From: Pirellulales bacterium
GTDB lineage: Bacteria; Planctomycetota; Planctomycetia; Pirellulales; PALSA-1355
Assembly (NCBI GenBank): GCA_040877415.1
Contig: JBBDNV010000087.1
Coordinates: 20,884-84,883 of the forward strand
Length of the DNA stretch: 64,000 bases
Direction of reading: 5' to 3'
Of this stretch, positions 4,234-27,984 are shown piece after piece. A program made the translations under genes and the position numbers. The notes under the pieces were generated by a model. It searched no databases, was not told the origin of the DNA, and worked only from the letters and a program-made list of their open reading frames with translations. Position 1 is the stretch's first letter. Every line of letters starts with the position of its first letter.

Positions 4234-5451
4234 ATGGACGAGCAGGGTCCGGCGTTGTCGCCGTCCGAGACTGCCGAAGCGAGCCCCAGGGGCCACTTGT
4301 CCCGCAACGTGCGGTTGTTGGGGGTGGTGAGCCTGGTCAACGACATCGCCAGCGAAATGATTTTTCCGCTGGTGCCGGCGTTTCTCACCGACGTTCTCAA
4401 AGCGGGTCCCGGCGCGCTGGGGGCGATCGAGGGAATTGCCGATTCGACCGCCAGCGTCGTCAAGTTGTGGTCCGGCGCGCTGTCGGACCGGGCCGGCAAG
4501 CGAAAGGTCTTTGTCGTGGCCGGCTACGCCTGCGCAGCCGTTTCGCGCCCGCTTTTGGGCATGGCCGCCGCCGTCTGGCAAGTTTTGGCGGTGCGCTTCA
4601 CCGACCGCTTCGGCAAGGGAATCCGCGCCGCCCCGCGCGACGCGATGATCGCCGATTCCACCGAACCGGCACTGCGCGGCCGGGCCTTTGGCTACAACCG
4701 CGCGATGGACCATCTGGGGGCGGCCATCGGTCCCGCCCTGGCTTTCGCCTTTTTGTCGCTTTGGCCGGGCCAGATGCGCGCGCTATTTCTATTGACGGTC
4801 GTGCCGGGCATCGTCGTCGTGGTGTTGGTGCTATTTGGCCTGCGCGAGCGGCCGATCACCACGCCGGCCGCCAAGGAGTTTCGCTTTACGCTGGCGCCCT
4901 TCGACCGCCGCTTTCGGGTGTACCTGGCGGCCTTGGTCGTCTTTACGCTGGGCAATTCGAGCGACGCTTTCTTGCTGTTGCGCCTGCGGGAACTGGGCGT
5001 GTCGCTCGAAATGCTGCCGCTGGTGTGGAGCGCGTTTCACGTCGTCAAAAGCGCCGGCAGTTTCCTGGCCGGACCCGCCGTCGACCGGTTTGGCCCGCGG
5101 CCGCTGATTGCAGCGGGTTGGATCGTCTATGCAATGATCTACCTGGCGTTTTCGTTGGCCACCACGGCGCTTCAAGGCTGGGCGTTTTTTCTGCTTTACG
5201 GCGCGTTCTACGCCCTGACGGAGCCCGCGGAACGTACGTTGGTCGCCAACCTGGTCGGACCCGACGAGCAGGGGCTGGCCTTCGGCTGGTTTAATTTCGC
5301 CATCGGCATCGCGGCCCTGCCGGCCAGCCTCATCTTCGGCGCGATTTACGAGGCTTACGGGGCGCAGGCGGCGTTCACCTGGGGCGCGGCCCTGGCGCTA
5401 GTGGCCGTGGCCATTTTGGGTGTGATCGGTCGGGGCACGAAGTCACGCTAG
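4234..5451 (+). CDS. MFS transporter
   Basis: Start placed at the internal ATG 4234 (MDEQGPAL), because the upstream part of the ORF is Arg-rich junk. About 12 hydrophobic segments. MFS loop motif GALSDRAGKRK. Confidence 0.75.
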   Translation: MDEQGPALSPSETAEASPRGHLSRNVRLLGVVSLVNDIASEMIFPLVPAFLTDVLKAGPGALGAIEGIADSTASVVKLWSGALSDRAGKRKVFVVAGYACAAVSRPLLGMAAAVWQVLAVRFTDRFGKGIRAAPRDAMIADSTEPALRGRAFGYNRAMDHLGAAIGPALAFAFLSLWPGQMRALFLLTVVPGIVVVVLVLFGLRERPITTPAAKEFRFTLAPFDRRFRVYLAALVVFTLGNSSDAFLLLRLRELGVSLEMLPLVWSAFHVVKSAGSFLAGPAVDRFGPRPLIAAGWIVYAMIYLAFSLATTALQGWAFFLLYGAFYALTEPAERTLVANLVGPDEQGLAFGWFNFAIGIAALPASLIFGAIYEAYGAQAAFTWGAALALVAVAILGVIGRGTKSR

Positions 5452-5871
5452 GCGACGGGAAAACACACGGTGCCGGCAACGGCCAATACTATACCTCATG
5501 CGTGCAATTTTCATCGATTTCCGCGTCATTGCGAGACGGGACAAGTCCTTGTGAAATGTTGCTTTACGCCGAGGCACAAGGTGAGGGTCGACCGCCACGT
5601 CTTGGAATCGAATGCAGAAACGTTTATTGGTCAGCCGATCTTTAATCTGGCAACTCGCTGTGACCTGCTGGCGGAGTCGCAGTTTGGCGACCTTGGTCAC
5701 CACTAAACGACATTGAATTTCACCACGACGTAAAAACAAGTGGTTTCCGATACATGGCGCGCTTCGGCGCCCATGAGCCGCACAGCGTTGCTGCCCCGCG
5801 CCTGTGCGGTTCTTTTTTGCGCCGACGGTTTTTTCGGCGCCCCCCGCTTGATCGCGTGCCGGCGCGCACGC

Positions 5872-7170
5872 TTACGCGCTGGCGAACAGAGCGCTGTCTG
5901 TTTGGCCGCTGGCGAGTTGTCCGGCCTTGACGACGCCGCCCTGCAGCACGGCGATGAACCGGCCGCGGTCTTCCAACAGCGCGATATCGGACAGTACGTC
6001 GCCATCGACGACCAGCACGTCGGCCAGTTTGCCGGGTTCGAGCGTGCCGAACTCGTCCTGGCGGCCCATGATCTCGGCGCCGGTTTTCGTGGCGCAGCGG
6101 ATGGTGTCGAGCGGGCTGAAGCCGACGTACTTGACGAAGAACGTCAATTCCTTGGCATACTTGCCGTGCGGATTCCAGGCGAAGCCGTAGTCGCCGCCCA
6201 TGCCCAGCCGTCCGCCGGCCTCGAGGATCAGCCGCGCGCTTTCGGCGCCTCCGTCGAGCGTTTCCTGGTGGCCGTCGATGACGTTTTGCGGCATGCCGAA
6301 CTCGGGGCCGCTGACGATCGAGGCGTATTCGAATTGCAAAGCGGGCACGACGGGCGTGTTGCGCTCAAGCAGCATGTCGAGCGCCTCGGTGTCCATGAAG
6401 GTGCCGTGCTCCAGCGTGTCGTAGCCGGCGCGCAGCGCGTTCTTGATGCCCGCCGTGGCGCGGCAATGTCCGGTGACCTTCAGCCGGTGGTTGTGCGCTT
6501 CTTCCACCACGGCGTGCATTTCTTCAAAAGTCATGCAGAGCGTATGGTGGTCGTTGGTTTGCGGCGCGGCGGCGTCGCCGGTGGGATAGGTTTTGACCCA
6601 TTCGACGCCGTCTTTGACCAGCTTGCGCACCGCCCGCCGCCCTTCGTCGGGGCCGTTAATCAAGAGAACCAGGCCCCCCATGCCGATCTTGCGGAAGTCG
6701 GGGTTCCAATCCATCAATCCGCCGACGCCGCAGATTTCGCGTCCGCTGGCCGCCAGCCGCGGCCCGGGGGTTAGTTCCTCTTCGATCGCCTTCTTCAGCC
6801 AGACGTCGATGTTGAACAGGCTGCCGCCGCTGCGCGCCGCCGTATATCCGCAGGCCAGCGCCAGCCGCGCGTTGGCCGCGGCCAGCAGCGTGACGTACTC
6901 GACCGGGTACTTGACGTCCAGGTCTTCCAGGTTCGCCACGTTGAAATACGTGGGATGAAAATGCGCCTCGACCAGCCCGGGCAGGATCGTGCCGCCTTGG
7001 GCGTCGAGGTGCGTGGCATCGGGCCCGACTTCGGGCGCGCCGGCAGCCCGTCCCGCGTAGGCAATTCGCCCGTCACGGATTACCACCGCGGCCTCGGGCA
7101 CGGCCGCCGCGCCGGTGCCGTCCACCAGTTGACCGTGCTCGATGATCGTCGTTCCGCGAGCCGTTTTCAT
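5872..7170 (-). CDS. Amidohydrolase-family metal-dependent hydrolase
   Basis: ILPGLVEAHFHP (HxH metal motif) follows the IRDGRIAYAG beta-sandwich start. C-terminal ADVLVVDGDVLSDI is typical of the amidohydrolase fold. Start chosen at MKTARG. Confidence 0.75.
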   Translation of the reverse strand: MKTARGTTIIEHGQLVDGTGAAAVPEAAVVIRDGRIAYAGRAAGAPEVGPDATHLDAQGGTILPGLVEAHFHPTYFNVANLEDLDVKYPVEYVTLLAAANARLALACGYTAARSGGSLFNIDVWLKKAIEEELTPGPRLAASGREICGVGGLMDWNPDFRKIGMGGLVLLINGPDEGRRAVRKLVKDGVEWVKTYPTGDAAAPQTNDHHTLCMTFEEMHAVVEEAHNHRLKVTGHCRATAGIKNALRAGYDTLEHGTFMDTEALDMLLERNTPVVPALQFEYASIVSGPEFGMPQNVIDGHQETLDGGAESARLILEAGGRLGMGGDYGFAWNPHGKYAKELTFFVKYVGFSPLDTIRCATKTGAEIMGRQDEFGTLEPGKLADVLVVDGDVLSDIALLEDRGRFIAVLQGGVVKAGQLASGQTDSALFASA

Positions 7171-11071: not shown

Positions 11072-11432
<361 letters not shown>

Positions 11433-11434
<2 letters not shown>

Positions 11435-11579
11435 CCACGCCCCCGGCCCTCGAAGCCACGTGTGAAATGCGCCGCGTGCGGCCAAACTCGCCGGTAACCA
11501 CCACCAGCACGCGCCCGTCCAAGCCATGCTGATAGACGCGATTGCTGTCGTCCGAAAGGCGATTTCCGTTCAGTATCAC
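11433..11579 (-). pseudogene. Internal fragment of a DUF1501-family gene (paralog of 13615-15033)
   Basis: It translates to [35 protein letters not shown]. The intact gene has [34 protein letters not shown]. The DNA at 11432-11530 aligns by eye to 13897-13995 with scattered mismatches. There is no N- or C-terminal remainder. Confidence 0.65.
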
Positions 11580-12986: not shown

Positions 12987-13289
12987 CTACAACCGGCGAA
13001 ACTGACGCGGCAAATCACGGACGGCATCGACCACTCGCATCACTTCGATTCCGTCAGGATGCGGCTGATAGAAGACAAGCCATCGCTTGTGCTTCAGGTA
13101 GAGCCATCCCTCGGGTGCGCTGGAATGCTTGTGACCCGGCAGCTGCTTTCCGGCGTGTTCGATGACTCGGTCTCGAATCGCGTAATAGAGTCGTTCTCCC
13201 GTCGCTGGCTTTCGATCAACGAAGGCGATGTAGAACAAGATGTCGTCGAGATCCGATTCGGCAACAGGTGTCCACACCGCTCGGGACAT
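12987..13289 (-). CDS. parE: Type II toxin, ParE/RelE family
   Basis: 100 aa. AESDLDDILFYI ... WLVFYQPHPDGIEVMRVVDAVRD is a typical ParE pattern. Its start ATG directly abuts the antitoxin stop (TAG-ATG). Confidence 0.8.
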   Translation of the reverse strand: MSRAVWTPVAESDLDDILFYIAFVDRKPATGERLYYAIRDRVIEHAGKQLPGHKHSSAPEGWLYLKHKRWLVFYQPHPDGIEVMRVVDAVRDLPRQFRRL

Positions 13290-13556
13290 CTAATCGAGGA
13301 TTCCTTCCTTGGCAAGCCTTTCTCGAAGCCGGGCAAGAACCTTGTCATCGTCGAGCGGTCTGGAAAGGCCTTGCTTGCTTTGCTCAGAGGCAAGCTGATT
13401 TCGCTCATGCCATCGGGCAATCTTGTCCACCTCAAGTTGGTCCAGCGCTCCCATCGCGTCGCGGAGGACCTCGTCTTCGGACGCATAGGCGCCCGACTCC
13501 ATGTGCCTCTTGATACGTTCTTCGACGTCGGGAGGAAACTGGTAGGCCATCGTCAT
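13290..13556 (-). CDS. parD: Type II antitoxin, ParD-like
   Basis: 88 aa. ESGAYASEDEVLRDAMGAL is the ParD-type motif. It lies immediately upstream of parE. Confidence 0.7.
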   Translation of the reverse strand: MTMAYQFPPDVEERIKRHMESGAYASEDEVLRDAMGALDQLEVDKIARWHERNQLASEQSKQGLSRPLDDDKVLARLRERLAKEGILD

Positions 13557-13614: not shown

Positions 13615-15033
13615 TCACGCGCGCGGCAGCAACTCGCGAATGGCCTGGCCGTGGGAGACGATCGGCGTGGGACGGCCGGCGTGGTCGGGGATCGTCACGT
13701 GCTCGTAGTCGATTCCCAGGTGCCGATAAATCGTGGCCAGAAAATCGTGCGGCCCCACGCGGCGTTCGACAACCTCTTCGCCGCGGCGGTCGGTGGCACC
13801 GATGATTTGGCCGGTTGGAATGCCTCCGCCGGCCCAGATCATCGAGTTGGCTTGCGGCCAGTGATCGCGCCCCGGCTGCACGGTGCCGGCCGACGCGCTG
13901 GCCACGCCCCCGCCGCTACTGGCCACGTGTGAAATGCGCGGCGTGCGACCGAACTCGCCGGTCACCACCACCAGCACGCGCTTGTCCAGCCCGCGGGCAT
14001 AGATGTCTTCGATCAATGCCGACACGGCCTGGTCAAAATAGGGCGCGCGGAAGCGCAGCGCGTCGAACACGTGATGATTCACCGCGTGGTCGTCCCAGTT
14101 TTGCACCCGGCCACACAGCGGGCCGTCGAACACGGTGGTCACGATCTCGACGCCGGCCTCGATCAGGCGGCGGGCCATCAGGCATTGCTGTCCCCACGGG
14201 TGCAGGCCGTACCGCTCGCGCACATCCGGCTTCTCCAGGCTCAGGTCGAACGCCCGGGCGGCCGCGGAGCTGGTGAGCAGGCTCATGGCCTGGGCCTCGA
14301 AATCGTCCATCGCCCGCATCACACCCGACTCGTCCAGCGCGCGCCGGAACTTGTCGAATGACTGTCGCAGACGAATCCGCTCGCGCAGCCGGCCGGCCTG
14401 TCCCGGATCCGACAGGCCGACGTTGGGCACCTTGAATCCCGGCGCGCTCGGATCGCCAGAGACGACAAACGGCTCGTAGGAAGGCCCCAGATACGCGGGG
14501 CCGGCGATGGTGAAAGCGTCATAGCGCGTGATCGGGTTGACGCCGACGTAATTGGGCAGCTCCTTCACCCGATCCGATCGCAGGTAGTGGGCCACGCTCA
14601 TCAGATCGGGATACACCGGCACGATCTTGTCCGCCGCGTCGGGATCGCCCGAGAGAAGCTGCAGCGAACCGGATGGATGTCCGCCGCCGGTGTGAGCCAT
14701 CGAACGCAGCAGGGCGAACTTGTCGGACAATTGCGCTTGCCGCGGCACCAGCTCGGTCAATCGCAGCCCCGGCGTGTGGGTGGCGATGGTGCCAAAAGGC
14801 CCGCTGTAGTCGGAGCCGGCCAGGGGTTTGGGATCGTAGGTGTCCAAATGGCTGCAGCCGCCGCGCAGCCAGACGATGATCACGGCCGTGCGCTCGCCGC
14901 CGCCGGGCGTCGCGGCCGCGGCTCGCAAACGCAACAGCCCCGGCAACGACAGCGCGCCAAACCCGGCCAGGCCGACGCGCAGAAACTCCCGCCGGGAAGT
15001 TGACAGGGCACGTGCCTTCGCGCTTGGGACCAT
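13615..15033 (-). CDS. DUF1501 domain-containing protein (sulfatase-like, Tat-exported)
   Basis: Tat-type N-terminus SRREFLRVGLAGFGALSL. DUF1501 hallmarks [25 protein letters not shown] and GRDHW. Confidence 0.85.
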   Translation of the reverse strand: MVPSAKARALSTSRREFLRVGLAGFGALSLPGLLRLRAAAATPGGGERTAVIIVWLRGGCSHLDTYDPKPLAGSDYSGPFGTIATHTPGLRLTELVPRQAQLSDKFALLRSMAHTGGGHPSGSLQLLSGDPDAADKIVPVYPDLMSVAHYLRSDRVKELPNYVGVNPITRYDAFTIAGPAYLGPSYEPFVVSGDPSAPGFKVPNVGLSDPGQAGRLRERIRLRQSFDKFRRALDESGVMRAMDDFEAQAMSLLTSSAAARAFDLSLEKPDVRERYGLHPWGQQCLMARRLIEAGVEIVTTVFDGPLCGRVQNWDDHAVNHHVFDALRFRAPYFDQAVSALIEDIYARGLDKRVLVVVTGEFGRTPRISHVASSGGGVASASAGTVQPGRDHWPQANSMIWAGGGIPTGQIIGATDRRGEEVVERRVGPHDFLATIYRHLGIDYEHVTIPDHAGRPTPIVSHGQAIRELLPRA

Positions 15034-15069: not shown

Positions 15070-15143
15070 TACGCCCGACAGGATTCGAACCTGTAACCCT
15101 CGGTTCCGAAGACCGATGCGCTATCCAATTGCGCCACGGGCGC
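15070..15143 (-). tRNA. tRNA-Arg (anticodon UCG)
   Basis: Hand-folded cloverleaf on the minus strand. Acceptor GCGCCCG/CGGGCGU (G1-U72 wobble). D arm GCGC-AAUUGGAUA-GCGC. Anticodon arm UCGGU-CUUCGGA-ACCGA. T arm ACAGG-UUCGAAU-CCUGU. Discriminator A. CCA is not encoded. Confidence 0.9.
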
Positions 15144-15429
15144 GTGCCAATTCAGCTTACGTTGTCCGGCCGTCCGGGACAAGCACGCGACAGCACGCGC
15201 ACGAGCGCGATTGCGCGACGTGTCCGCGGGATTCGGCGCTTGCGGCGACAGCGCGCGGGCGGCGGACAATCCGCCATGCCAGATTCTTTTGCTTGCGCTT
15301 CAGCTTGGTATGCGGCTTGCGGCGCGCAGAGAACTGCAGTCGACTTGAGCCGGGGGCGGTGGGATGCTATAAGCGCAGGTGCCGTGGCGCGGCCGCGGCG
15401 GCGGTCTCGTTTCTGCCGGCAGTGCATCC

Positions 15430-16101
15430 ATGGCGCAAATCACCCTACGCGTGCTGGACGGCGCCGATCGCGGCCGGATCTACGAAAATCTACCGACGCC
15501 CGTGACGATCGGCCGCGAAGAAGGCAATTCGCTGCAGCTCAACGACGAGCGCGTGAGCCGCTTTCACGTCAAAATCCAGGAAGACCAGGAAAAAATCGTC
15601 ATCACCGACCTGGAAAGCACCAACGGCACCAAGGTCAACGGCGAGGATATCCAGCTCCGCATTCTGCGCTATGGCGACATCGTCAGCCTGGGCCGCACGG
15701 TGCTCTTGTTCGGCTCGCGCGAGCAGATCGCCCAGCGGCTGGCCGCGCTGCGCGGCGAGAAACCGACGACCGGGAGCTTGAAAGACGCGCTGCAAGCCGG
15801 AAAGGCCGGCTCGCTCGAATTCGAGTTGAACTGGAGCGGCGACCCAGACATCCAAAGCACGCTGCATACGCTCTTGCCCCCCGATCTGCCCGAGCGTTTG
15901 AGCCCGGGCCAGGCGGCCCAGCTCTGCGAGCTGTTGGAATACTTGCACGTTCGCATTCGCGACATGCTCAATGCCGTCAAGATCAAGGCCGACGCGGAGC
16001 AAGTGGTGCTCGAGGCGCGGCAGTGGCAGAACCTGATCGACGTGCAATCCCGTTTGGCGAGCTACCTGCGCGCCGTCGGCCAGCCGCCGGAAGAGGAGTG
16101 A
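15430..16101 (+). CDS. FHA domain-containing protein
   Basis: Start at MAQITLRVLDG. FHA core is TIGREEGNSLQLNDERVSRFHVKI...DLESTNGTKVNG. Confidence 0.8.
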   Translation: MAQITLRVLDGADRGRIYENLPTPVTIGREEGNSLQLNDERVSRFHVKIQEDQEKIVITDLESTNGTKVNGEDIQLRILRYGDIVSLGRTVLLFGSREQIAQRLAALRGEKPTTGSLKDALQAGKAGSLEFELNWSGDPDIQSTLHTLLPPDLPERLSPGQAAQLCELLEYLHVRIRDMLNAVKIKADAEQVVLEARQWQNLIDVQSRLASYLRAVGQPPEEE

Positions 16102-16120
16102 CGCGGAATCGGGGAAAGGA

Positions 16121-16158
16121 TTTTGAACCACGACGACACGACGAGCACGACGCAAAGG
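16121..16158 (+). repeat. AACCAC-type repeat, copy A (direct repeat partner of 16945-16980)
   Basis: TTTTGAACCACGACGACACGACGAGCACGACGCAAAGG. The first 24 nt are identical to the copy at 16945. Confidence 0.75.
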
Positions 16159-16212
16159 ACCGTGGTTGTCGCCGTTTTTTCCTCGTTGCGCCGTGGTAGT
16201 CAACTCCGATTC

Positions 16213-16911
16213 CTACGCCGCATCGTCGGCGCTCGGCCGGCGTTTATGCCTCGCAAGGCGGTAGAGCAGCGTATTGCCTTGTTTGCCGACGGGCTCAACG
16301 GCGCGCATCTCGCGCAGGCAATAGGCGATACGCTGTGCCGCGTGGCGATCGACGCCGCATAGCTCGGCCAGCGCGCGGGTGTGAAACTCGGCCGGCAACG
16401 GGGCCGGCAGGAGCTTGATCAGATCGGCCGGCCGGCAAAGCCGGACGCTTGCGCCGACGGCAATCAGCTTTTGATCGGCCACCACGTGATCGTTTCGCCG
16501 CCAGCGCCGCCGACGGCCGTGACCCGGATAACGCCATTCTTCGACGTCGACCAGCACCACTTCAACGGCCAGCCGCGGATGCGGAAAGACGCGCGTGAAA
16601 TACACCAGCTCGTCAAAGATGTCGAGCAACCCGCCGCGCTTGGGGCTCAGCCGCCGCGAGACGGCCTCGCCGTCCGGCGCGGGCTGCTTCACCAGCATTT
16701 TGGTGCGCACGATCGGCTTGACGACTAGCACGCGGTGGCGCGCGACGAGACGGCCGATTTTGTCGCGAATGGCTGCCAGCGAGCCGTGCTGAATTTCGAT
16801 CAATTGCCCGCCGCTGACCGCGTCGATGCGATAGTCGTCGAGCACGACTTCCGTGCGGGCCCGTTGGCCGGCATAGCGGCGTTTCAGATCGCGGTGCAGC
16901 GAGGTTTCCAT
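16213..16911 (-). CDS. Hypothetical nuclease-fold protein (CoiA-like D...EIQ motif) with C-terminal winged-helix-like region
   Basis: Start at METSLH. YRIDAVSGGQLIEIQHGSL resembles the PD-(D/E)xK / CoiA ExQ core. The C-terminus (ALAELCGVDRHAAQRIAYCLREMRAVEPVGKQGNTLLYRLA) looks like a wHTH. It is bracketed by direct repeats. Confidence 0.5.
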   Translation of the reverse strand: METSLHRDLKRRYAGQRARTEVVLDDYRIDAVSGGQLIEIQHGSLAAIRDKIGRLVARHRVLVVKPIVRTKMLVKQPAPDGEAVSRRLSPKRGGLLDIFDELVYFTRVFPHPRLAVEVVLVDVEEWRYPGHGRRRRWRRNDHVVADQKLIAVGASVRLCRPADLIKLLPAPLPAEFHTRALAELCGVDRHAAQRIAYCLREMRAVEPVGKQGNTLLYRLARHKRRPSADDAA

Positions 16912-16944
16912 CGATCCGCGAGTTTCCTCGCTGATTGGACGCGG

Positions 16945-16980
16945 TTTTGAACCACGACGACACGACGAACACAACGAGGG
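16945..16980 (+). repeat. AACCAC-type repeat, copy B
   Basis: TTTTGAACCACGACGACACGACGAACACAACGAGGG. It lies 34 nt upstream (gene sense) of the 16911 start codon. Confidence 0.75.
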
Positions 16981-16996
16981 AGAGGACTCACGAAAG

Positions 16997-17569
16997 TTAT
17001 CGCAATTCCGCTTCCTTTTTGTCGGGCGGCTCGATGCCCAGGTCGCGAATCGTCAGCAAGCTGGCAAATTCGTAGCCGCGCGCGGCAAACGCGTCCGCGC
17101 CTCCTTCCATGCGGTCGATGATCGCCACCACGCGCTTCACCTTCAGGCCGAAGGCTTCCGCGCGCTCGATGGCCTCGAGCGACGAGCCGCCGGTCGTCAC
17201 GACGTCTTCGACAATCACGACGTTATCGCCCGGGCTTACCGGGCCTTCGATATAGCGGCCCGTGCCGTGATCCTTGGGCTGTTTTCGCACGAGGATGCCT
17301 TTCAGGGGCAAGCCGCGCACGCCGGCCATGGTGACGACGGCCGCGGTGATCGGGTCGGCGCCGATGGCCATGCCGCCGACGGCCGTGGGCAATTCATTTC
17401 CCAACAAATCGAGGATTCCCTCGGCCACGAGCTTGGCGCCCGCCGCATCGAGCGTGACCTGTTTGCCGTCGAGGTAGTAGCTGGCCTTTTTTCCCGAAGC
17501 GAGCGTGAACTCGCCGAACGCCAGCGCCTTTTCCTTGACCAGCGCGATCAGTGCCCCCTTGTCGTACAC
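16997..17569 (-). CDS. pyrE: Orotate phosphoribosyltransferase
   Basis: 190 aa. FGEFTLASGKKASYYLDGK and the PRPP-binding VVIVEDVVTTGGS motif. Confidence 0.9.
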   Translation of the reverse strand: MYDKGALIALVKEKALAFGEFTLASGKKASYYLDGKQVTLDAAGAKLVAEGILDLLGNELPTAVGGMAIGADPITAAVVTMAGVRGLPLKGILVRKQPKDHGTGRYIEGPVSPGDNVVIVEDVVTTGGSSLEAIERAEAFGLKVKRVVAIIDRMEGGADAFAARGYEFASLLTIRDLGIEPPDKKEAELR

Positions 17570-17713
17570 GCGGTTGCCCCCTGCAAATCGACGAGCATCA
17601 TTGGTGACTTTTTCGAGCCCTCATCCTAAACCACCAGACGCAAACAATCGACAGGAAATGTGCGTGGCGAGAGGTGCGAAAATTCGCTTGAACTTGATAA
17701 GCGTCGGGGAGAA

Positions 17714-17746
17714 GATTACCACCAAGGCACCAAGGGCACCAAGAAT
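17714..17746 (+). repeat. Left arm of the inverted repeat bracketing the GxxExxY gene (contains a 9-nt tandem GGCACCAAG x2)
   Basis: GATTACCACCAAGGCACCAAGGGCACCAAGAAT. It ends in the AT of the start codon. Confidence 0.75.
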
Positions 17747-18143
17747 GGGCGAAAGCTTTGAGCCGGTCTCGCAAGAGGTTGACGCGATTGCCAAAAGCGT
17801 GATCGACGCTGCACTGCATGTGCACCGTGCGTTGGGCCCGGGACTGCTTGAGTCTGCCTACGAAATTTGTCTTTGCCACGAGCTTTCAAAACGCCGGATC
17901 AAAGTTGAGCGACAGAAGTCATGGCCTATTCTGTATGACGGCATTCGTCTTGACGCCGGCCTTCGTTTGGACTTGCTCGTGGAAGATCAGGTGATCGTCG
18001 AACTCAAAGCGGTGGAACAGATGAATCCGCTTTTTGAAGCCCAACTATTGACTTATCTAAAGTTAGCTGGGAGACGGCTCGGACTTCTGATCAACTTCAA
18101 CGTACCCTTACTGAAAGACGGCATTAAGCGATTGGTTCGCTAG
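17745..18143 (+). CDS. GxxExxY protein (PD-(D/E)xK nuclease-fold family)
   Basis: Start at MGESFEP. The literal motif is GPGLLESAY. ...DLLVEDQVIVELKAV... and LLINFN match the GxxExxY family pattern. Confidence 0.85.
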   Translation: MGESFEPVSQEVDAIAKSVIDAALHVHRALGPGLLESAYEICLCHELSKRRIKVERQKSWPILYDGIRLDAGLRLDLLVEDQVIVELKAVEQMNPLFEAQLLTYLKLAGRRLGLLINFNVPLLKDGIKRLVR

Positions 18144-18176
18144 TCGCCGGTGACCGTACGTTCCTTATCCGTCGTT

Positions 18177-18201
18177 ATTCTTGGTGCCTTGGTGGTTAAT
18201 C
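18177..18201 (-). repeat. Right arm of the inverted repeat bracketing the GxxExxY gene
   Basis: The reverse complement is GATTAACCACCAAGGCACCAAGAAT. It matches the left arm apart from one extra A and a single (not double) GGCACCAAG unit. Confidence 0.75.
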
Positions 18202-18212
18202 CTTGTCCCGCC

Positions 18213-19637
18213 CTAGCGGCGGATGGTGACGCGGGAGCCGAGGCTGAGAATGTCGTAGACGTCCTCGGCGTCGCGTTCGCTTAAGCTGATCGACCCGGGA
18301 AGGTCGGTGCGGCCGATGCTCTCGGGGTTATTCGTGCCGTGAATGCCGATGCCGCTGCCCAGGCCGATCCAACGCTCGCCGAGCGGATTGTCACTTTCCT
18401 CGGCGCCGATGGCTCGATCGCGGCCGTAGTAGACCGGATTGACGACTTTTTCGGCGACGGGAAACGTGCCTTCCTGAGGCGGGTGTTCGCCGCCGATGCC
18501 GATCTTGAACCGGCCGGCATACGAGCCGTCGGCCGCAAACAGCGTCAGTTCGCGCTTCTGGAGACTGACGATCGCCTGGAACGGACCGCGCACGACTTTG
18601 AGCCGCTCGCCCGGCCGCAGCGCCGACGGATCGTCGATGCCGTTGATCTTGGCCAACAATTGCCACGGCACGCTGTACTTTTCGCCGATGTCTTCCAGAC
18701 GTTCACCGCTCTGGACCTCGTAAGGCGGTTCGAGCAGATTCTGCGTCGAATAAACCACCGTGCCGGCCACCTGATCCAAAAGCTCGTTGAGCTGCTGGTG
18801 CTCGGCGGGTGAAAGCTCAGGACGGTCGTACCACTTGGAAAGCTGGCGCAAGGCAGAGGCCATTTGGCCGCCTTCCAATTCGCGCTTGGCCGCTGCGACC
18901 GCCGCTGCGAAATCGCTCGACGCCCCGGCCGCGGGCGGCGGACTGCCGCTCGTCGACGCTTGATCCGGCGGCGCCGGATTACCGGATGGCGCAGGAGAAC
19001 CAGGCCCAGGCCCGCCTTCAGCCGGCGGCGCTTGATATCGGTCCGGCACGCCGGACTCATCCGAGCCGGCGTAAGGGTCCACGACCGGGCCTTCCTGCGC
19101 GCCTGGCACTGAGGGACCCGTGCCCGCCGGTCCCGCCGGCGGTTGGTTTTCGTTTTGCGCCTTGAACGGCTGCCCAGGATCTTGCTGCGGCTGGCCGGCT
19201 GGCTGGCCGGCGGCATTCGGCGGCGGCGGATTGGTGCCGGCATACGGCGGAGCCTCGCTCGCGCCCACCCCCGGGGTCAAAGGCGGGGCCTGCCCTGTCG
19301 GCGGGTATTGCCCCGCGGGCGGTCGAGGACCACCGGGTGGAGCCGGGGCTACGGATGCCGCGGCGGAAGGTGGGTGGTAGGATGGCGCTTCGCCGCCGGT
19401 CGGCGGCGGCGCGGCCGCGTTGGGGGACGCACCAAATGGTCCCGCCGGGCCCGGAGCTTGCGCAGGCGGCGGACCCCACGGCGCGGAACTCGGCTGGTCG
19501 GGCAACTGCACGTTGGGCGTCGTATCCCAACCTGCGGCAACCGGCGGCGCACCGTTTCCGCTGTTGAGCCGGATGTACACTCCGTAGCCAATTCCTGCCA
19601 GGACGGCAACGATCAATAGCGGCTTCAGCGTATTCAC
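18213..19637 (-). CDS. Membrane-anchored proline-rich protein with LysM and L,D-transpeptidase (YkuD) domains
   Basis: N-terminal TM (LLIVAVLAGIGYGVYI), then a long Pro/Ala/Gly-rich spacer. LysM is YEVQSGERLEDIGEKYSVPWQLLAKINGI. The YkuD catalytic region is IGIHGTNNPESIGRTDLPGSISL (Ser at the usual Cys position). Confidence 0.75.
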   Translation of the reverse strand: MNTLKPLLIVAVLAGIGYGVYIRLNSGNGAPPVAAGWDTTPNVQLPDQPSSAPWGPPPAQAPGPAGPFGASPNAAAPPPTGGEAPSYHPPSAAASVAPAPPGGPRPPAGQYPPTGQAPPLTPGVGASEAPPYAGTNPPPPNAAGQPAGQPQQDPGQPFKAQNENQPPAGPAGTGPSVPGAQEGPVVDPYAGSDESGVPDRYQAPPAEGGPGPGSPAPSGNPAPPDQASTSGSPPPAAGASSDFAAAVAAAKRELEGGQMASALRQLSKWYDRPELSPAEHQQLNELLDQVAGTVVYSTQNLLEPPYEVQSGERLEDIGEKYSVPWQLLAKINGIDDPSALRPGERLKVVRGPFQAIVSLQKRELTLFAADGSYAGRFKIGIGGEHPPQEGTFPVAEKVVNPVYYGRDRAIGAEESDNPLGERWIGLGSGIGIHGTNNPESIGRTDLPGSISLSERDAEDVYDILSLGSRVTIRR

Positions 19638-19912
19638 AAGTTCGTCCTCCCTGACGACACCGGCGAAAAGCGCAATCGCGAACGGGTCTTAAACGGTACG
19701 AGTTCGCTGTGGAAATGATACGCGCGACGCGGCCGACACGGGCACCGAGGCATCGCGGCCCGCCCGCTCGTCGGTAGTGCCCTAGTTTTCGAGTGCGGAT
19801 CATAGGCCAAGGGCCCATTCGAAGCCAGCCCAAAGTAGGCGGACGGCTGCGTGCACGTCCGGGTGAAGCCGGAAGCACGGTGAATTCCCAAGATGCCAGC
19901 ATCCGCCGGCCG

Positions 19913-26144: not shown

Positions 26145-26250
26145 GACGCGACGCCTGCTGCCACGGATACTGTACAATTGTACAATATCGGGCAAGGGTT
26201 GCAAAGAGGGCGCACCCCCACGCCCTCTCGGCCGTTTCGTGGGAGCCGAC

Positions 26251-26317
26251 GCGTGCCGCGGGTGGCTCGTCCGCCCGTGCTGCCCCGCACGCTGCTGGAT
26301 AGGCCAGTGGCGCCCGG
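26251..26317 (-). repeat. Palindromic 34-nt repeat unit (reverse orientation) plus CCAGTGGCGCCC tail
   Basis: GCGTGCCGCGGGTGGCTCGTCCGCCCGTGCTGCC matches 30/34 against the reverse complement of the unit at 27657. It lies upstream of cax. Confidence 0.65.
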
Positions 26318-26404: not shown

Positions 26405-27595
26405 ATGCCGCCGCAACAAGGGCGCTCGTGGTTCCAACAGACCTGGCACAGGCTGGGCGCGCATCCGCTCGATGGGCTGCTGGTGGCGTTTCCCGTGGCG
26501 CTGGCGGCGCGGTATTTCGGGGCCGGCGACGTGTGGGTGTTCGTCGCTTCCGGGGTGGCGATTATTCCGCTGGCCGGGCTGATGGGCCGCGCCACCGAAA
26601 GCCTGGCGGCCACGCTGGGCGCCGGCGTCGGTGGGCTGCTCAACGCCACCTTCGGCAACGCCGCGGAATTGATCATCGCCTTGGTCGCGCTGTGGGAAGG
26701 CCCCCAGATGTATCCGCTCGTGAAAGCGTCGATCACAGGATCGATTATCGGAAACGTGCTGTTGGTGTTGGGCCTGGCCGTGGCGCTGGGAGGCATGCGG
26801 CACAAATATCAGCGGTTCAATCGCACGGCGGCCAGCATGGGCGCGACGCTTTTGACCCTGGCCACCGTGGGTCTGATCATGCCGACCTTGTACTATTACG
26901 TTTTCGCCGCCGGCCGCCCGCTCGAACCGGCGCAGTTGACGACCGTCGAGTTTCTCAGCGAAGAAATCGCCGCCATCCTGGCAGGCGTGTACGTGTTGAG
27001 CCTGGTGTTCATGTTCGTCACGCACCGCAGTCTGTTCGACGCTTCCGAGCAACGCGCCAAGAGCGCCCAAGCCCAGCGCGAGGAGGAACCGCATTGGAAC
27101 CGGCCCGCGGCGCTGTCGGTGCTGCTTGCGGCCACGGTCTGCGTGGCAGTCGTGGCCGAATTGCTGGTCGGATCGGTCGAGGCGGCCGCGCACGAATTGG
27201 GCATGAGCCGGGTCTTCGTAGGCATCATCGTGGTGGCCATCGTGGGCAACGCGGCCGAACATTCGACCGCGGTGTTGGCGGCCATGAAAAACAAGATGGA
27301 TTTGGCGGTCAACATCGCCGTGGGCAGCGGCATCCAGATTGCCCTGTTCGTGGCGCCCTTGCTGGTTTTCGCGAGCATTGCCATGGGGCACGAGCGGCCG
27401 ATGGATCTGCATTTTACGCCGCTGGAGATCGTGGCCGTCGTGATCGCGATCCTCGTACTGGCGCTGGTGGCGCAGGACGGTGAAAGCCATTGGCTGGAGG
27501 GGATTATGCTGTTGGCGGTGTACGCGATATTGGCGCTTGCCTTTTATCACCTGGGCGAAATTTCACCCCCCGAAATGACGGTCCCCGGAAGCTAG
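26405..27595 (+). CDS. cax: Calcium/proton exchanger (CaCA family)
   Basis: Two alpha-repeat signatures, [13 protein letters not shown] and [13 protein letters not shown]. About 11 TM segments with an acidic central loop. Confidence 0.85.
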
Positions 27596-27656: not shown

Positions 27657-27758
27657 GGCAGCACGGGTGGGCGAGCCACCCGTGGCACCCGACAGCACGG
27701 GTGGGTGAGACGCCAGTGGCACCCGACAGCACGGGTGGGCGAGCCACCCGTGGCACGC
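27657..27758 (+). repeat. Three tandem 34-nt units of a palindromic (REP-like) repeat
   Basis: Units lie at 27657, 27691 and 27725 (GACAGCACGGGTGGGCGAGCCACCCGTGGCACCC). Units 1 and 3 carry a 9-bp hairpin, CACGGGTGG-GCGAG-CCACCCGTG. Unit 2 is the CCAGTGGCACCC variant. Confidence 0.8.
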
Positions 27759-27984
27759 TCTTGGCGGCCGTCTGTTCGGTACAAGCCGTGCATTAGGCGA
27801 ACGGCTGGGCCCGCAATTCCGTTGCGACGATTCAGTCCGCGCGGGCCAGCCGGACAGTTCAAGCCCGATGCTAGCGTGTCCGAAGATGATCATGATCGGA
27901 CGCGCCGATTGGTGGGGTTCATCCGGCGGCCTGCCCCCGGCCGCGGCATACGCAACCCTGCCCGCTATCCGGAAGCTTTTTCTC

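Follow-up and report, generated by a model that had tools for sequence, protein, structure and literature searches.

What is a small gene for a putative nuclease doing between two inverted copies of a short repeat, and do gene and repeats form a single unit? The question is raised by a 64,000-nucleotide stretch of DNA from the metagenome-assembled genome of a Pirellulales bacterium (contig JBBDNV010000087.1 of assembly GCA_040877415.1, positions 20,884 to 84,883; hereafter the window), in which a GxxExxY-family gene lies between a pyrE-like gene and a LysM-YkuD gene with one repeat, or arm, on either side. A preliminary description of the window had proposed two such cassettes flanking pyrE, each consisting of a nuclease-fold gene bracketed by related repeats and perhaps traveling or being processed as a discrete unit. 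This idea holds for the GxxExxY gene, the presence of which is polymorphic among relatives, and fails for the second gene, a member of DUF8091, which sits in no cassette. The comparisons presented below support the view that window segment 17714-18201 is a discrete unit with presence/absence polymorphism. With confidence slightly better than even, we further propose that it is a selfish DNA module, following a logic like that of repetitive extragenic palindromes (REPs) and their associated tyrosine transposases (RAYTs) or that of miniature inverted-repeat transposable elements (MITEs) and their partner insertion sequences (IS), with the GxxExxY nuclease acting on its own arms.

All four arms of the window open with a T-rich lead and AACCAC and continue as tandem units of 8–9 nucleotides (nt), the unit reading CACCAAGG(G) in the inverted pair around the GxxExxY gene and CACGACGA(G) in a direct pair around the DUF8091 gene. 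The inverted copies at 17714 and 18177 are present as described: 17718-17734 and 18180-18196 are 100% complementary over 17 nt, where 0.07 such matches would be expected by chance, and a second register of 12 nt exists owing to an extra unit in the left arm, which has three (CACCAAGG, CACCAAGGG and CACCAAG) to the right arm's two. This inequality had been put down to a doubled unit on the left. The left arm does hold one unit more, but since each arm of the orthologous cassette in two relatives (L219 and L231) consists of three units, it is the right arm that lost a 9-nt unit, the left having gained none. The left arm ends at 17743, leaving 1 nt before the ATG at 17745, and the right arm begins 34 nt past the GxxExxY stop codon and 11 nt past that of the YkuD gene on the minus strand, so that the window cassette has the convergent arms and the interval-filling open reading frame (ORF) by which we define the module. 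A purine run in the left arm, AAGGG, lies 8 nt before the ATG and is likely the ribosome-binding site. With about 28 of 32 columns invariant among the window and two relatives (L219 and L220), the left arm is better conserved than any other stretch of the region, the adjacent spacer being poorly conserved.

The direct copies, at 16121-16152 and 16945-16976, agree at 30 of 32 positions, and their first 24 nt are identical, as had been reported; a 24-mer search of the 64 kb with up to 3 mismatches returned the copies at 16121 and 16945 only, with 0 expected from shuffles. The skeleton claimed for both repeat families stands as well, in that a regular expression for two CAC-N-A-N-G units spaced 8–9 nt apart finds, over the 64 kb, only the four arms and two chance matches in coding sequence. 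A weaker look-alike proposed at 5713-5730 is a single unit without structure (folding z = +1.1), and we do not count it; a candidate “fifth arm” at about 17621-17645 is spacer conserved in L219 and L220, and probably no arm. That four arms should be confined to 2 kb of a 64-kb window might suggest a local accident, whether a duplication or a chance match. The same skeleton, however, recurs in hundreds of unrelated contigs, and most of the GxxExxY genes sampled are flanked by it. The repeats are not unique to this locus, and this explanation, to which we assign next to no probability, is refuted.

The generality of the arrangement can be judged from a metagenomic sample of 80 GxxExxY loci (52–65% identity), 74 of which had enough flanking sequence. 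When the 200-nt upstream flank of the gene was aligned to the reverse-complemented downstream flank of equal length (score of at least 30), an inverted repeat was found at 56 of the 74 loci, as opposed to 0 of 186 shifted control intervals. All of these flanking repeats share the same skeleton, an arm of about 30 nt composed of T-T-M-A-C and about three 8–9-nt units C-R-C-N-N-A-G-R. At least three units are seen in 69 of the 80 loci, usually in a 3 + 3 layout, and T-T-M-A-C forms the outer boundary of the arm, beyond which the sequences of the two sides are unrelated. The unit type varies (CGCAGAG at 18 homologues, CACAGAG at 13, CACGAAG at 10, CACAAAG at 5, CACCAAG at 4, and others), and the CACGACG type of the window's direct pair flanks GxxExxY genes elsewhere (L163, L208, L232). 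Here, too, the gene fits closely between its arms: the start codon follows the upstream arm by 0–20 nt, the downstream arm begins a median of 15 nt past the end of the protein match, and the upstream arm carries a Shine-Dalgarno-like purine run just before the start codon, with the complement of that run in the downstream arm. We rejected the idea that the arms are translated as an N-terminal extension; of 54 cassettes, 14 have a start codon at the boundary, in frame in 7 of them, no more than chance would give.

The association is also specific to this one gene family. Within 200 nt of GxxExxY the density of strict three-unit arms is 3.29 per kb, versus 0.136 per kb elsewhere in the loci, a 24-fold difference. 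Of 52 arm pairs with an ORF between them, 8 are artefacts and all the rest, 44, enclose GxxExxY, and surveys of arm neighbors and arm pairs found no other gene family recurring beside or between arms. Moreover, the nearest protein neighbor shares the arm class in 45 of 69 cases, as compared with 19.5 expected (permutation p < 0.0005). Judged across these loci, the architecture and its GxxExxY specificity are genuine, and arm type and protein lineage are co-inherited.

Related genomes differ at the window's cassette site. The YkuD-pyrE spacer contains neither GxxExxY nor an arm in L215 (45 nt) and in L007/L008 (135 nt), and the cassette is likewise absent from this spacer in L002 and L006. The empty sites that the preliminary description had suggested looking for in relatives are thus found, and because those of L215 and L007 lack any arm, gene and arms were gained or lost there together. 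On the other hand, L219 and L220 carry the cassette in the same place and orientation, with arms of the CACCAAG type and GxxExxY proteins 82–85% identical. In L231, a 7.8-Mb contig, the cassette occupies the same spacer in inverted orientation, its GxxExxY gene being 74% identical and codirectional with YkuD and pyrE. A 72%-identical GxxExxY with arms is seen at an unrelated locus in L232/L234, with a ribonucleotide reductase gene on one side and a DNA methyltransferase gene on the other. The L232 cassette (gene at 5001-5399) is a hybrid, of CACMAAG type in its upstream arm and CACGACG type in its downstream one, and L232/L234 have an extra minus-strand CACCAAG arm some 50 nt farther upstream. 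Among cultured isolates, Bacteroides finegoldii (L217) has the cassette in the spacer that separates radA from the gene next to it, and 21 kb of its sequence include four further arm sites, while a Sphingomonas isolate has the cassette between fabD and fabG; on a Gemmatirosa plasmid the GxxExxY gene adjoins full hairpins, and the gene family is present at three places on the plasmid. One protein found on 24 contigs (P0160) was rejected as evidence of multi-site insertion, the contigs all representing one locus in one population with identical arms.

The enclosed protein fits a PD-(D/E)XK nuclease by motif and by predicted fold. The ORF at 17745-18143 matches PF13366 (1.2e-41; 142.2 bits, cut-off 22) and TIGR04256 (2.8e-44; 150.2 bits, cut-off 35); PDDEXK_3 is its sole Pfam match, and no HUH/Y1 transposase was found in it. 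Residues G33, E36, Y39 and D76 are invariant, and E86 and K88 are invariant in one alignment (A3) and at least 90% conserved in another (A4). The AlphaFold2 model (predicted local distance difference test, pLDDT, of 93.6) is a minimal PD-(D/E)XK domain, its best fold matches in the PDB, both weak at E about 7e-3, being Cas4 SSO0001 and a lambda-exonuclease-like enzyme. A sequence search of the PDB gave nothing significant for either the GxxExxY or the DUF8091 protein; searches of defense-system and phage families with both gave nothing but a marginal PHROG match to the winged helix-turn-helix (wHTH) region, and no GxxExxY protein was found in the phage collection searched. The GxxExxY/PDDEXK_3 family comprises 21,041 clusters at 50% identity, and a 2012 survey described its function as “unknown,” with “multiple transfers” and mixed bacterial and archaeal clades (PMC3424549).

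Taking these strands together, unit gain and loss, in-place inversion, a close homologue at an unrelated locus, arm turnover, and the nested and multi-copy gene-less elements discussed below are, as read from the loci compared, features of this system. The mechanism that we envision to connect them, the enzymology and mode of movement of which we infer, would have the GxxExxY nuclease recognize the arms of its own module and cut them, at the T-T-M-A-C boundary or else at a hairpin or cruciform that they can form. Such cutting would drive the copying or movement of gene-bearing and gene-less copies alike, the upstream arm would double as the source of a ribosome-binding site, and recombination between the arms would flip the gene.

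Several observations weigh against this proposal. The cassette is stable and orthologous, at 74–85% identity, across several Pirellulales, and is identical in 10 samples of one Thermoguttaceae population; given such stability over the divergence sampled, movement would be rare or the unit domesticated. No target-site duplication was found, no direct repeat of 2–9 nt at offsets 0–7 recurring in more than 5 of 44 cassettes, although the palindromic T-T-M-A-C end could hide a short one. No exact excision or insertion junction was captured among the relatives, the nearest of which have spacers that do not align. The gene-less arms and the cassette arms of the window are of different unit types, and this mixture, together with the hybrid arms of L232, makes strict recognition of cognate units doubtful. 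Finally, the association of protein lineage with arm class could come from simple co-inheritance or from host taxonomy.

The arms are also encountered with no gene between them. One genome per GTDB species was scanned with a degenerate pattern, AACCAC followed by three C-A-C-N-A-N-G units; this gave at least 120 loci, our chance estimate over the whole collection being about 70. That these are not chance matches is argued by the composition of the matches listed, in which 65 of 138 arms have three units agreeing at both free positions (estimated chance rate 1 in 256), 109 of 138 have A at unit position 6 in all three units, and T accounts for 1.7% of arm sequence. The hosts among the matches listed include Planctomycetota, Chloroflexota, Acidobacteriota, Cyanobacteria (complete Calothrix genomes among them), Verrucomicrobiota, Bacteroidota, Pseudomonadota, Gemmatimonadota and a Methanothrix, with locus GC contents of 33–71%; the CACGACG type recurs in other Planctomycetota (L036, L065, L094, L097). 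In at least eight phyla, gene-less arms are a common feature of intergenic spacers. Still among the matches listed, a convergent partner lies no more than 600 nt away for 70 of 130 arms, as opposed to 7 of 121 on the control side; the convergent doublets have hairpin loops of 4–260 nt, and about half of the arms are solo. In the regions sampled, gene-less arms appear to occur more often than gene-bearing pairs, and they lie in short intergenic spacers. Two arms with identical flanks in L045, which might have been taken for transposition, are the duplicated ends of a repetitive gene.

Some loci point to gene-less elements being copied whole. On a viral contig (L013), two elements of 175 nt share their arms and have related interiors, and each sits in its own spacer between structural genes; one of the two folds at −137.6 kcal/mol (z = −9.9). 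Gemmatirosa kalamazoonensis plasmid 1 (L216) carries, at about 1700-1850 and again at about 14440-14590, a composite in which the loop of a CGCAGAG hairpin contains a CACRGAG hairpin, the junctions being the same both times; the hairpins of that region have a common inner stem after the three units, GAAACCAAC...GTTGGTTTC. We found no description of the arm in Rfam or in the searchable literature, a body of work that most subscription-journal papers lie outside, and a prior description is possible. The one apparent literature match to the arm sequence proved to be a pair of cloning primers, and Rfam returned only tRNAs, both in 14 loci at the gathering threshold and in the window region at an E-value threshold. 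The wider proposal that these arms mark a cross-phylum class of mobile palindromes, with a 130-residue nuclease as the sole enzyme of the element, moving itself and hundreds of gene-less hairpins per genome, is one that we advance tentatively, as possible and somewhat short of probable.

The nesting on the Gemmatirosa plasmid, because it places one hairpin in the loop of another, marks loops as insertion targets and so opens a different account, in which the hairpins come first, as palindromes either useful to the host or self-spreading, and GxxExxY is a homing-type parasite that cuts the center of gene-less hairpins and has its ORF inserted by repair from a gene-bearing copy using arm homology. 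Such an origin would explain why the ORF always takes the loop position and fills the loop exactly, and why, in the regions sampled, copies without the gene seem to be the more numerous. It also agrees with the interiors of gene-less pairs: no GxxExxY remnant was found in 20 of them, and as they hold no ORF remnants we rejected the notion that gene-less hairpins are deletion derivatives of the cassette. The empty YkuD-pyrE sites of L215 and L007, however, lack any arm, and arms of 26–30 nt are about as short as homologous repair can use, which counts against this account. It leaves the spread of the hairpins themselves unexplained, too, and we consider it unlikely, though worth keeping in mind.

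Could the arms instead act at the level of RNA? They might form a transcript stem around the ORF, subject to RNase III-like processing or hiding the ribosome-binding site, with the gene-less hairpins serving as mRNA stabilizers or terminators. The predicted minimum-free-energy fold of 17705-18210 does pair the two arms (z = −4.6), the Shine-Dalgarno-like run of the upstream arm and its complement in the downstream arm would lend themselves to such a role, arms often lie just past stop codons, and the L013 hairpins fold very strongly (z = −9.9). Arm mismatches, however, fall into 75 of G·U type, 79 of A·C type and 211 others, which is no bias toward wobble pairing; about half of the arms are solo, and others, as in L232, are hybrid; and the cassette is found in either orientation relative to the operon (L231). 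There is, moreover, no terminator-like site at any arm within 15300-19700 and no match in Rfam, and an RNA role leaves unit gain, loss, inversion and nesting unexplained. Arm gain, loss, inversion, nesting and turnover are DNA-level events. For the same reasons (no G·U bias, solo and hybrid arms, both cassette orientations) we do not retain the earlier suggestion that the inverted arms are processed in the transcript in the manner of the stems around rRNA intervening sequences, and we judge an RNA-level explanation to be a little less likely still than homing into preexisting hairpins.

The second cassette of the preliminary description, built on the direct repeats around the ORF at 16213-16911, fares differently. 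The near-identical 32-nt repeats on both sides of this gene, together with a possible nuclease-like N-terminal domain in its product, could be taken to mean that both genes are cargo, DUF8091 moving between direct repeats as GxxExxY does between inverted ones. The ORF was first labeled a CoiA-like protein with a wHTH. No CoiA profile matches it, nor does any family of Pfam-A or NCBIfam (0 and 0), but its AlphaFold2 model (pLDDT 90) has a C-terminal winged helix/wHTH (probability 1.0). The modeled N-terminal domain gives a weak restriction-endonuclease-like match, BglII/YaeQ-like, at probability 0.5–0.6, and residues D29, E38 and Q40 are invariant in the alignment. DUF8091 homologues run to thousands, with 66–83% identity among the best 120 matches. 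Synteny speaks against the cargo reading: pyrE is followed directly by DUF8091 in 7 of 7 related genomes (L002, L006, L007, L215, L219, L220, L231), at 70–83% protein identity, and none of the seven has an arm repeat in the pyrE-DUF8091 spacer. In L231, the place of the window's solo arm is taken by an ordinary terminator-like hairpin with a T run (GGGGACATTCT...AGAATGTCGCCTTTTTT, 6078-6135).

Nor do the window's direct copies behave as the two ends of one element. The copy at 16121-16152 lies where the FHA and DUF8091 genes converge, 20 nt past the FHA stop codon, and forms with 16184-16203 a degenerate hairpin doublet of about 80 nt; the single-strand fold of 16105-16215 pairs the two (z = −2.6 on the plus strand, −3.2 on the minus). 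The copy at 16945-16976 has no partner arm and no predicted structure (z = 0.2 and −1.0). Since one is half of a decayed hairpin and the other an unstructured solo arm in the adjacent spacer, they are independent gene-less copies. The arms of the FHA-DUF8091 spacer also differ among relatives: where the window has a plus-strand CACGACG arm with its decayed partner, L219 has a CACCAAG doublet and a minus-strand CACGACG arm, and L220 a minus-strand CACGAAG/CACCAAG arm. The direct orientation departs from the convergent arms of all 44 ORF-enclosing cassettes, and DUF8091 was never seen as cargo between arms in either the neighbor or the arm-pair survey. On this comparative evidence DUF8091 is a conserved gene, not repeat cargo; the direct copies around it, which belong to a second unit type and came into the window lineage only, are a decayed doublet and a solo arm. 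That DUF8091 is a cargo gene strikes us as very improbable. The features of the locus are collected in the table.

Table. Genes and arms of the window locus, in window coordinates
Feature	Position	Strand	Basis
FHA-domain gene	15379-16101	+	ORF list and profile search
Gene-less arm, unit type CACGACG, TTTTGAACCAC-GACGA-CACGACGAG-CACGACG	16121-16152	+	Repeat and regular-expression searches
Decayed partner arm CGTTGCGCCGTGGTAGTCAA, pairing with the arm at 16121-16152	16184-16203	-	Coordinates by eye; fold
DUF8091 (PF26351) gene, conserved downstream partner of pyrE	16213-16911	-	Synteny; precomputed PF26351 assignment
Solo arm of CACGACG unit type, between pyrE and DUF8091	16945-16976	+	Repeat search
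pyrE-like phosphoribosyltransferase gene	16997-17569	-	
Left (upstream) arm of the GxxExxY cassette, GATTA-CCAC-CAAGG-CACCAAGGG-CACCAAG, three units	17714-17743	+	
GxxExxY / PDDEXK_3 PD-(D/E)XK nuclease gene, 132 residues, cassette cargo	17745-18143	+	
Right (downstream) arm of the GxxExxY cassette, minus strand GGATTAACCAC-CAAGG-CACCAAG-AAT, two units	18177-18201	-	
LysM-YkuD gene	18213-19637	-	

Set beside known systems, the module resembles the REP/REPIN-RAYT pairs, in which, too, a small enzyme gene lies between inverted copies of a short repeat that is also scattered as singlets and hairpin doublets, several repeat types may share a genome, and the repeat type travels with the gene lineage. 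The enzymes differ, a RAYT being an HUH/Y1 (IS200/IS605-like) transposase and the module's a PD-(D/E)XK nuclease. The REP repeat is a short palindrome with a GTAG or CGTC tag (PMC3733652). The module arm, in contrast, consists of three 8–9-nt direct units without a palindrome, a single arm does not fold (z = +1.5), and its sequence logo contains neither tag. Whereas REPs are species-specific, the skeleton of the module is conserved across phyla, and GxxExxY, unlike RAYT genes, is multi-copy per replicon in at least one case, the three places on the Gemmatirosa plasmid. With pairs of MITEs and IS elements (e.g., Correia/NEMIS) the module shares terminal inverted repeats of about 26–30 nt, short gene-less derivatives with a common interior (L013), nested insertions and a location in short spacers beside gene ends. 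It departs from them in having no detected target-site duplication, no DDE, serine or tyrosine transposase and no cargo other than GxxExxY, in a coding capacity of one 130-residue nuclease that leaves no room for a promoter, and in arms that are internally periodic.

Like an integron cassette with its attC site, the module is a promoterless ORF held tightly between imperfect, foldable inverted repeats, with presence/absence polymorphism; but its arm ends, GTGGTTAATC and GTGGTTCAAAA, do not fit the GTTRRRY of the R''/R' core sites RYYYAAC ... GTTRRRY, and its copies, confined to a single cargo family, are dispersed among housekeeping genes rather than arrayed by an integrase. Free-standing homing endonuclease genes, known from intergenic spacers of phage and bacterial operons, also place a small nuclease gene between intact housekeeping genes (here fabD/fabG, radA, YkuD/pyrE), with relatives that lack it, but they have no bracketing repeats and one target locus each, as opposed to the many loci and the arm pair of the module. 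The ORFs of 23S rRNA intervening sequences, with their RNase III stems, likewise sit between complementary arms able to pair in the transcript; they belong, however, to PF05635, and the cassette is not in an rRNA gene. No rRNA was found in the window region, and the arm pairs carry no wobble or compensatory signature. Nor are the arms intrinsic terminators, as no short G+C-rich stem followed by a U tract accompanies any arm in 15300-19700.

If the module is what we propose, GxxExxY/PDDEXK_3, a very large family with no known function, would acquire a testable role as a nuclease acting on its own flanking repeats. The arms would then constitute a major class of intergenic repeat, extending from Bacteroides to cyanobacteria, Planctomycetota and Methanothrix, with no match in Rfam or the searchable literature, and one able to invert or rearrange operon spacers. 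Were the wider, cross-phylum proposal true, the module would represent a mechanism of transposition or homing distinct from the DDE, HUH, serine and tyrosine systems. Annotation is affected, too: gene callers often let GxxExxY ORFs run on through the arms, which are free of stop codons, giving homologues of 144–157 residues, or fuse tandem copies. Predicted proteins of 275–295 residues with two GxxExxY domains (P0241-P0245 and similar) may be tandem cassettes fused in this way. In B. finegoldii (L217, 16020-16075) the start of a coding sequence annotated as “zinc ribbon domain” runs through an arm and is probably mis-set.

A few further features of the window lie apart from the arms. A tRNA gene at 15070-15143 (minus strand) stands just upstream of the FHA-domain gene. 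Two abutting small ORFs at 12987-13289 and 13290-13556, both on the minus strand, look by eye like a ParE/RelE-type toxin and an antitoxin. A 113-nt direct repeat, 81% identical, links 11424-11536 to 13891-14003; the second copy is inside a DUF1501-like ORF (13615-15033), and the pair is probably paralogous coding sequence. An unrelated repeat family is represented by three tandem 34-nt units, CAGCACGGGTGGGCGAGCCACCCGTGGCACCCGA, each a small palindrome, at 27659-27760, with an 85% inverted match 1.37 kb upstream, at 26245-26285. These sites bracket a plus-strand ORF at 26405-27595 that by eye resembles a CaCA-type cation/H+ antiporter.

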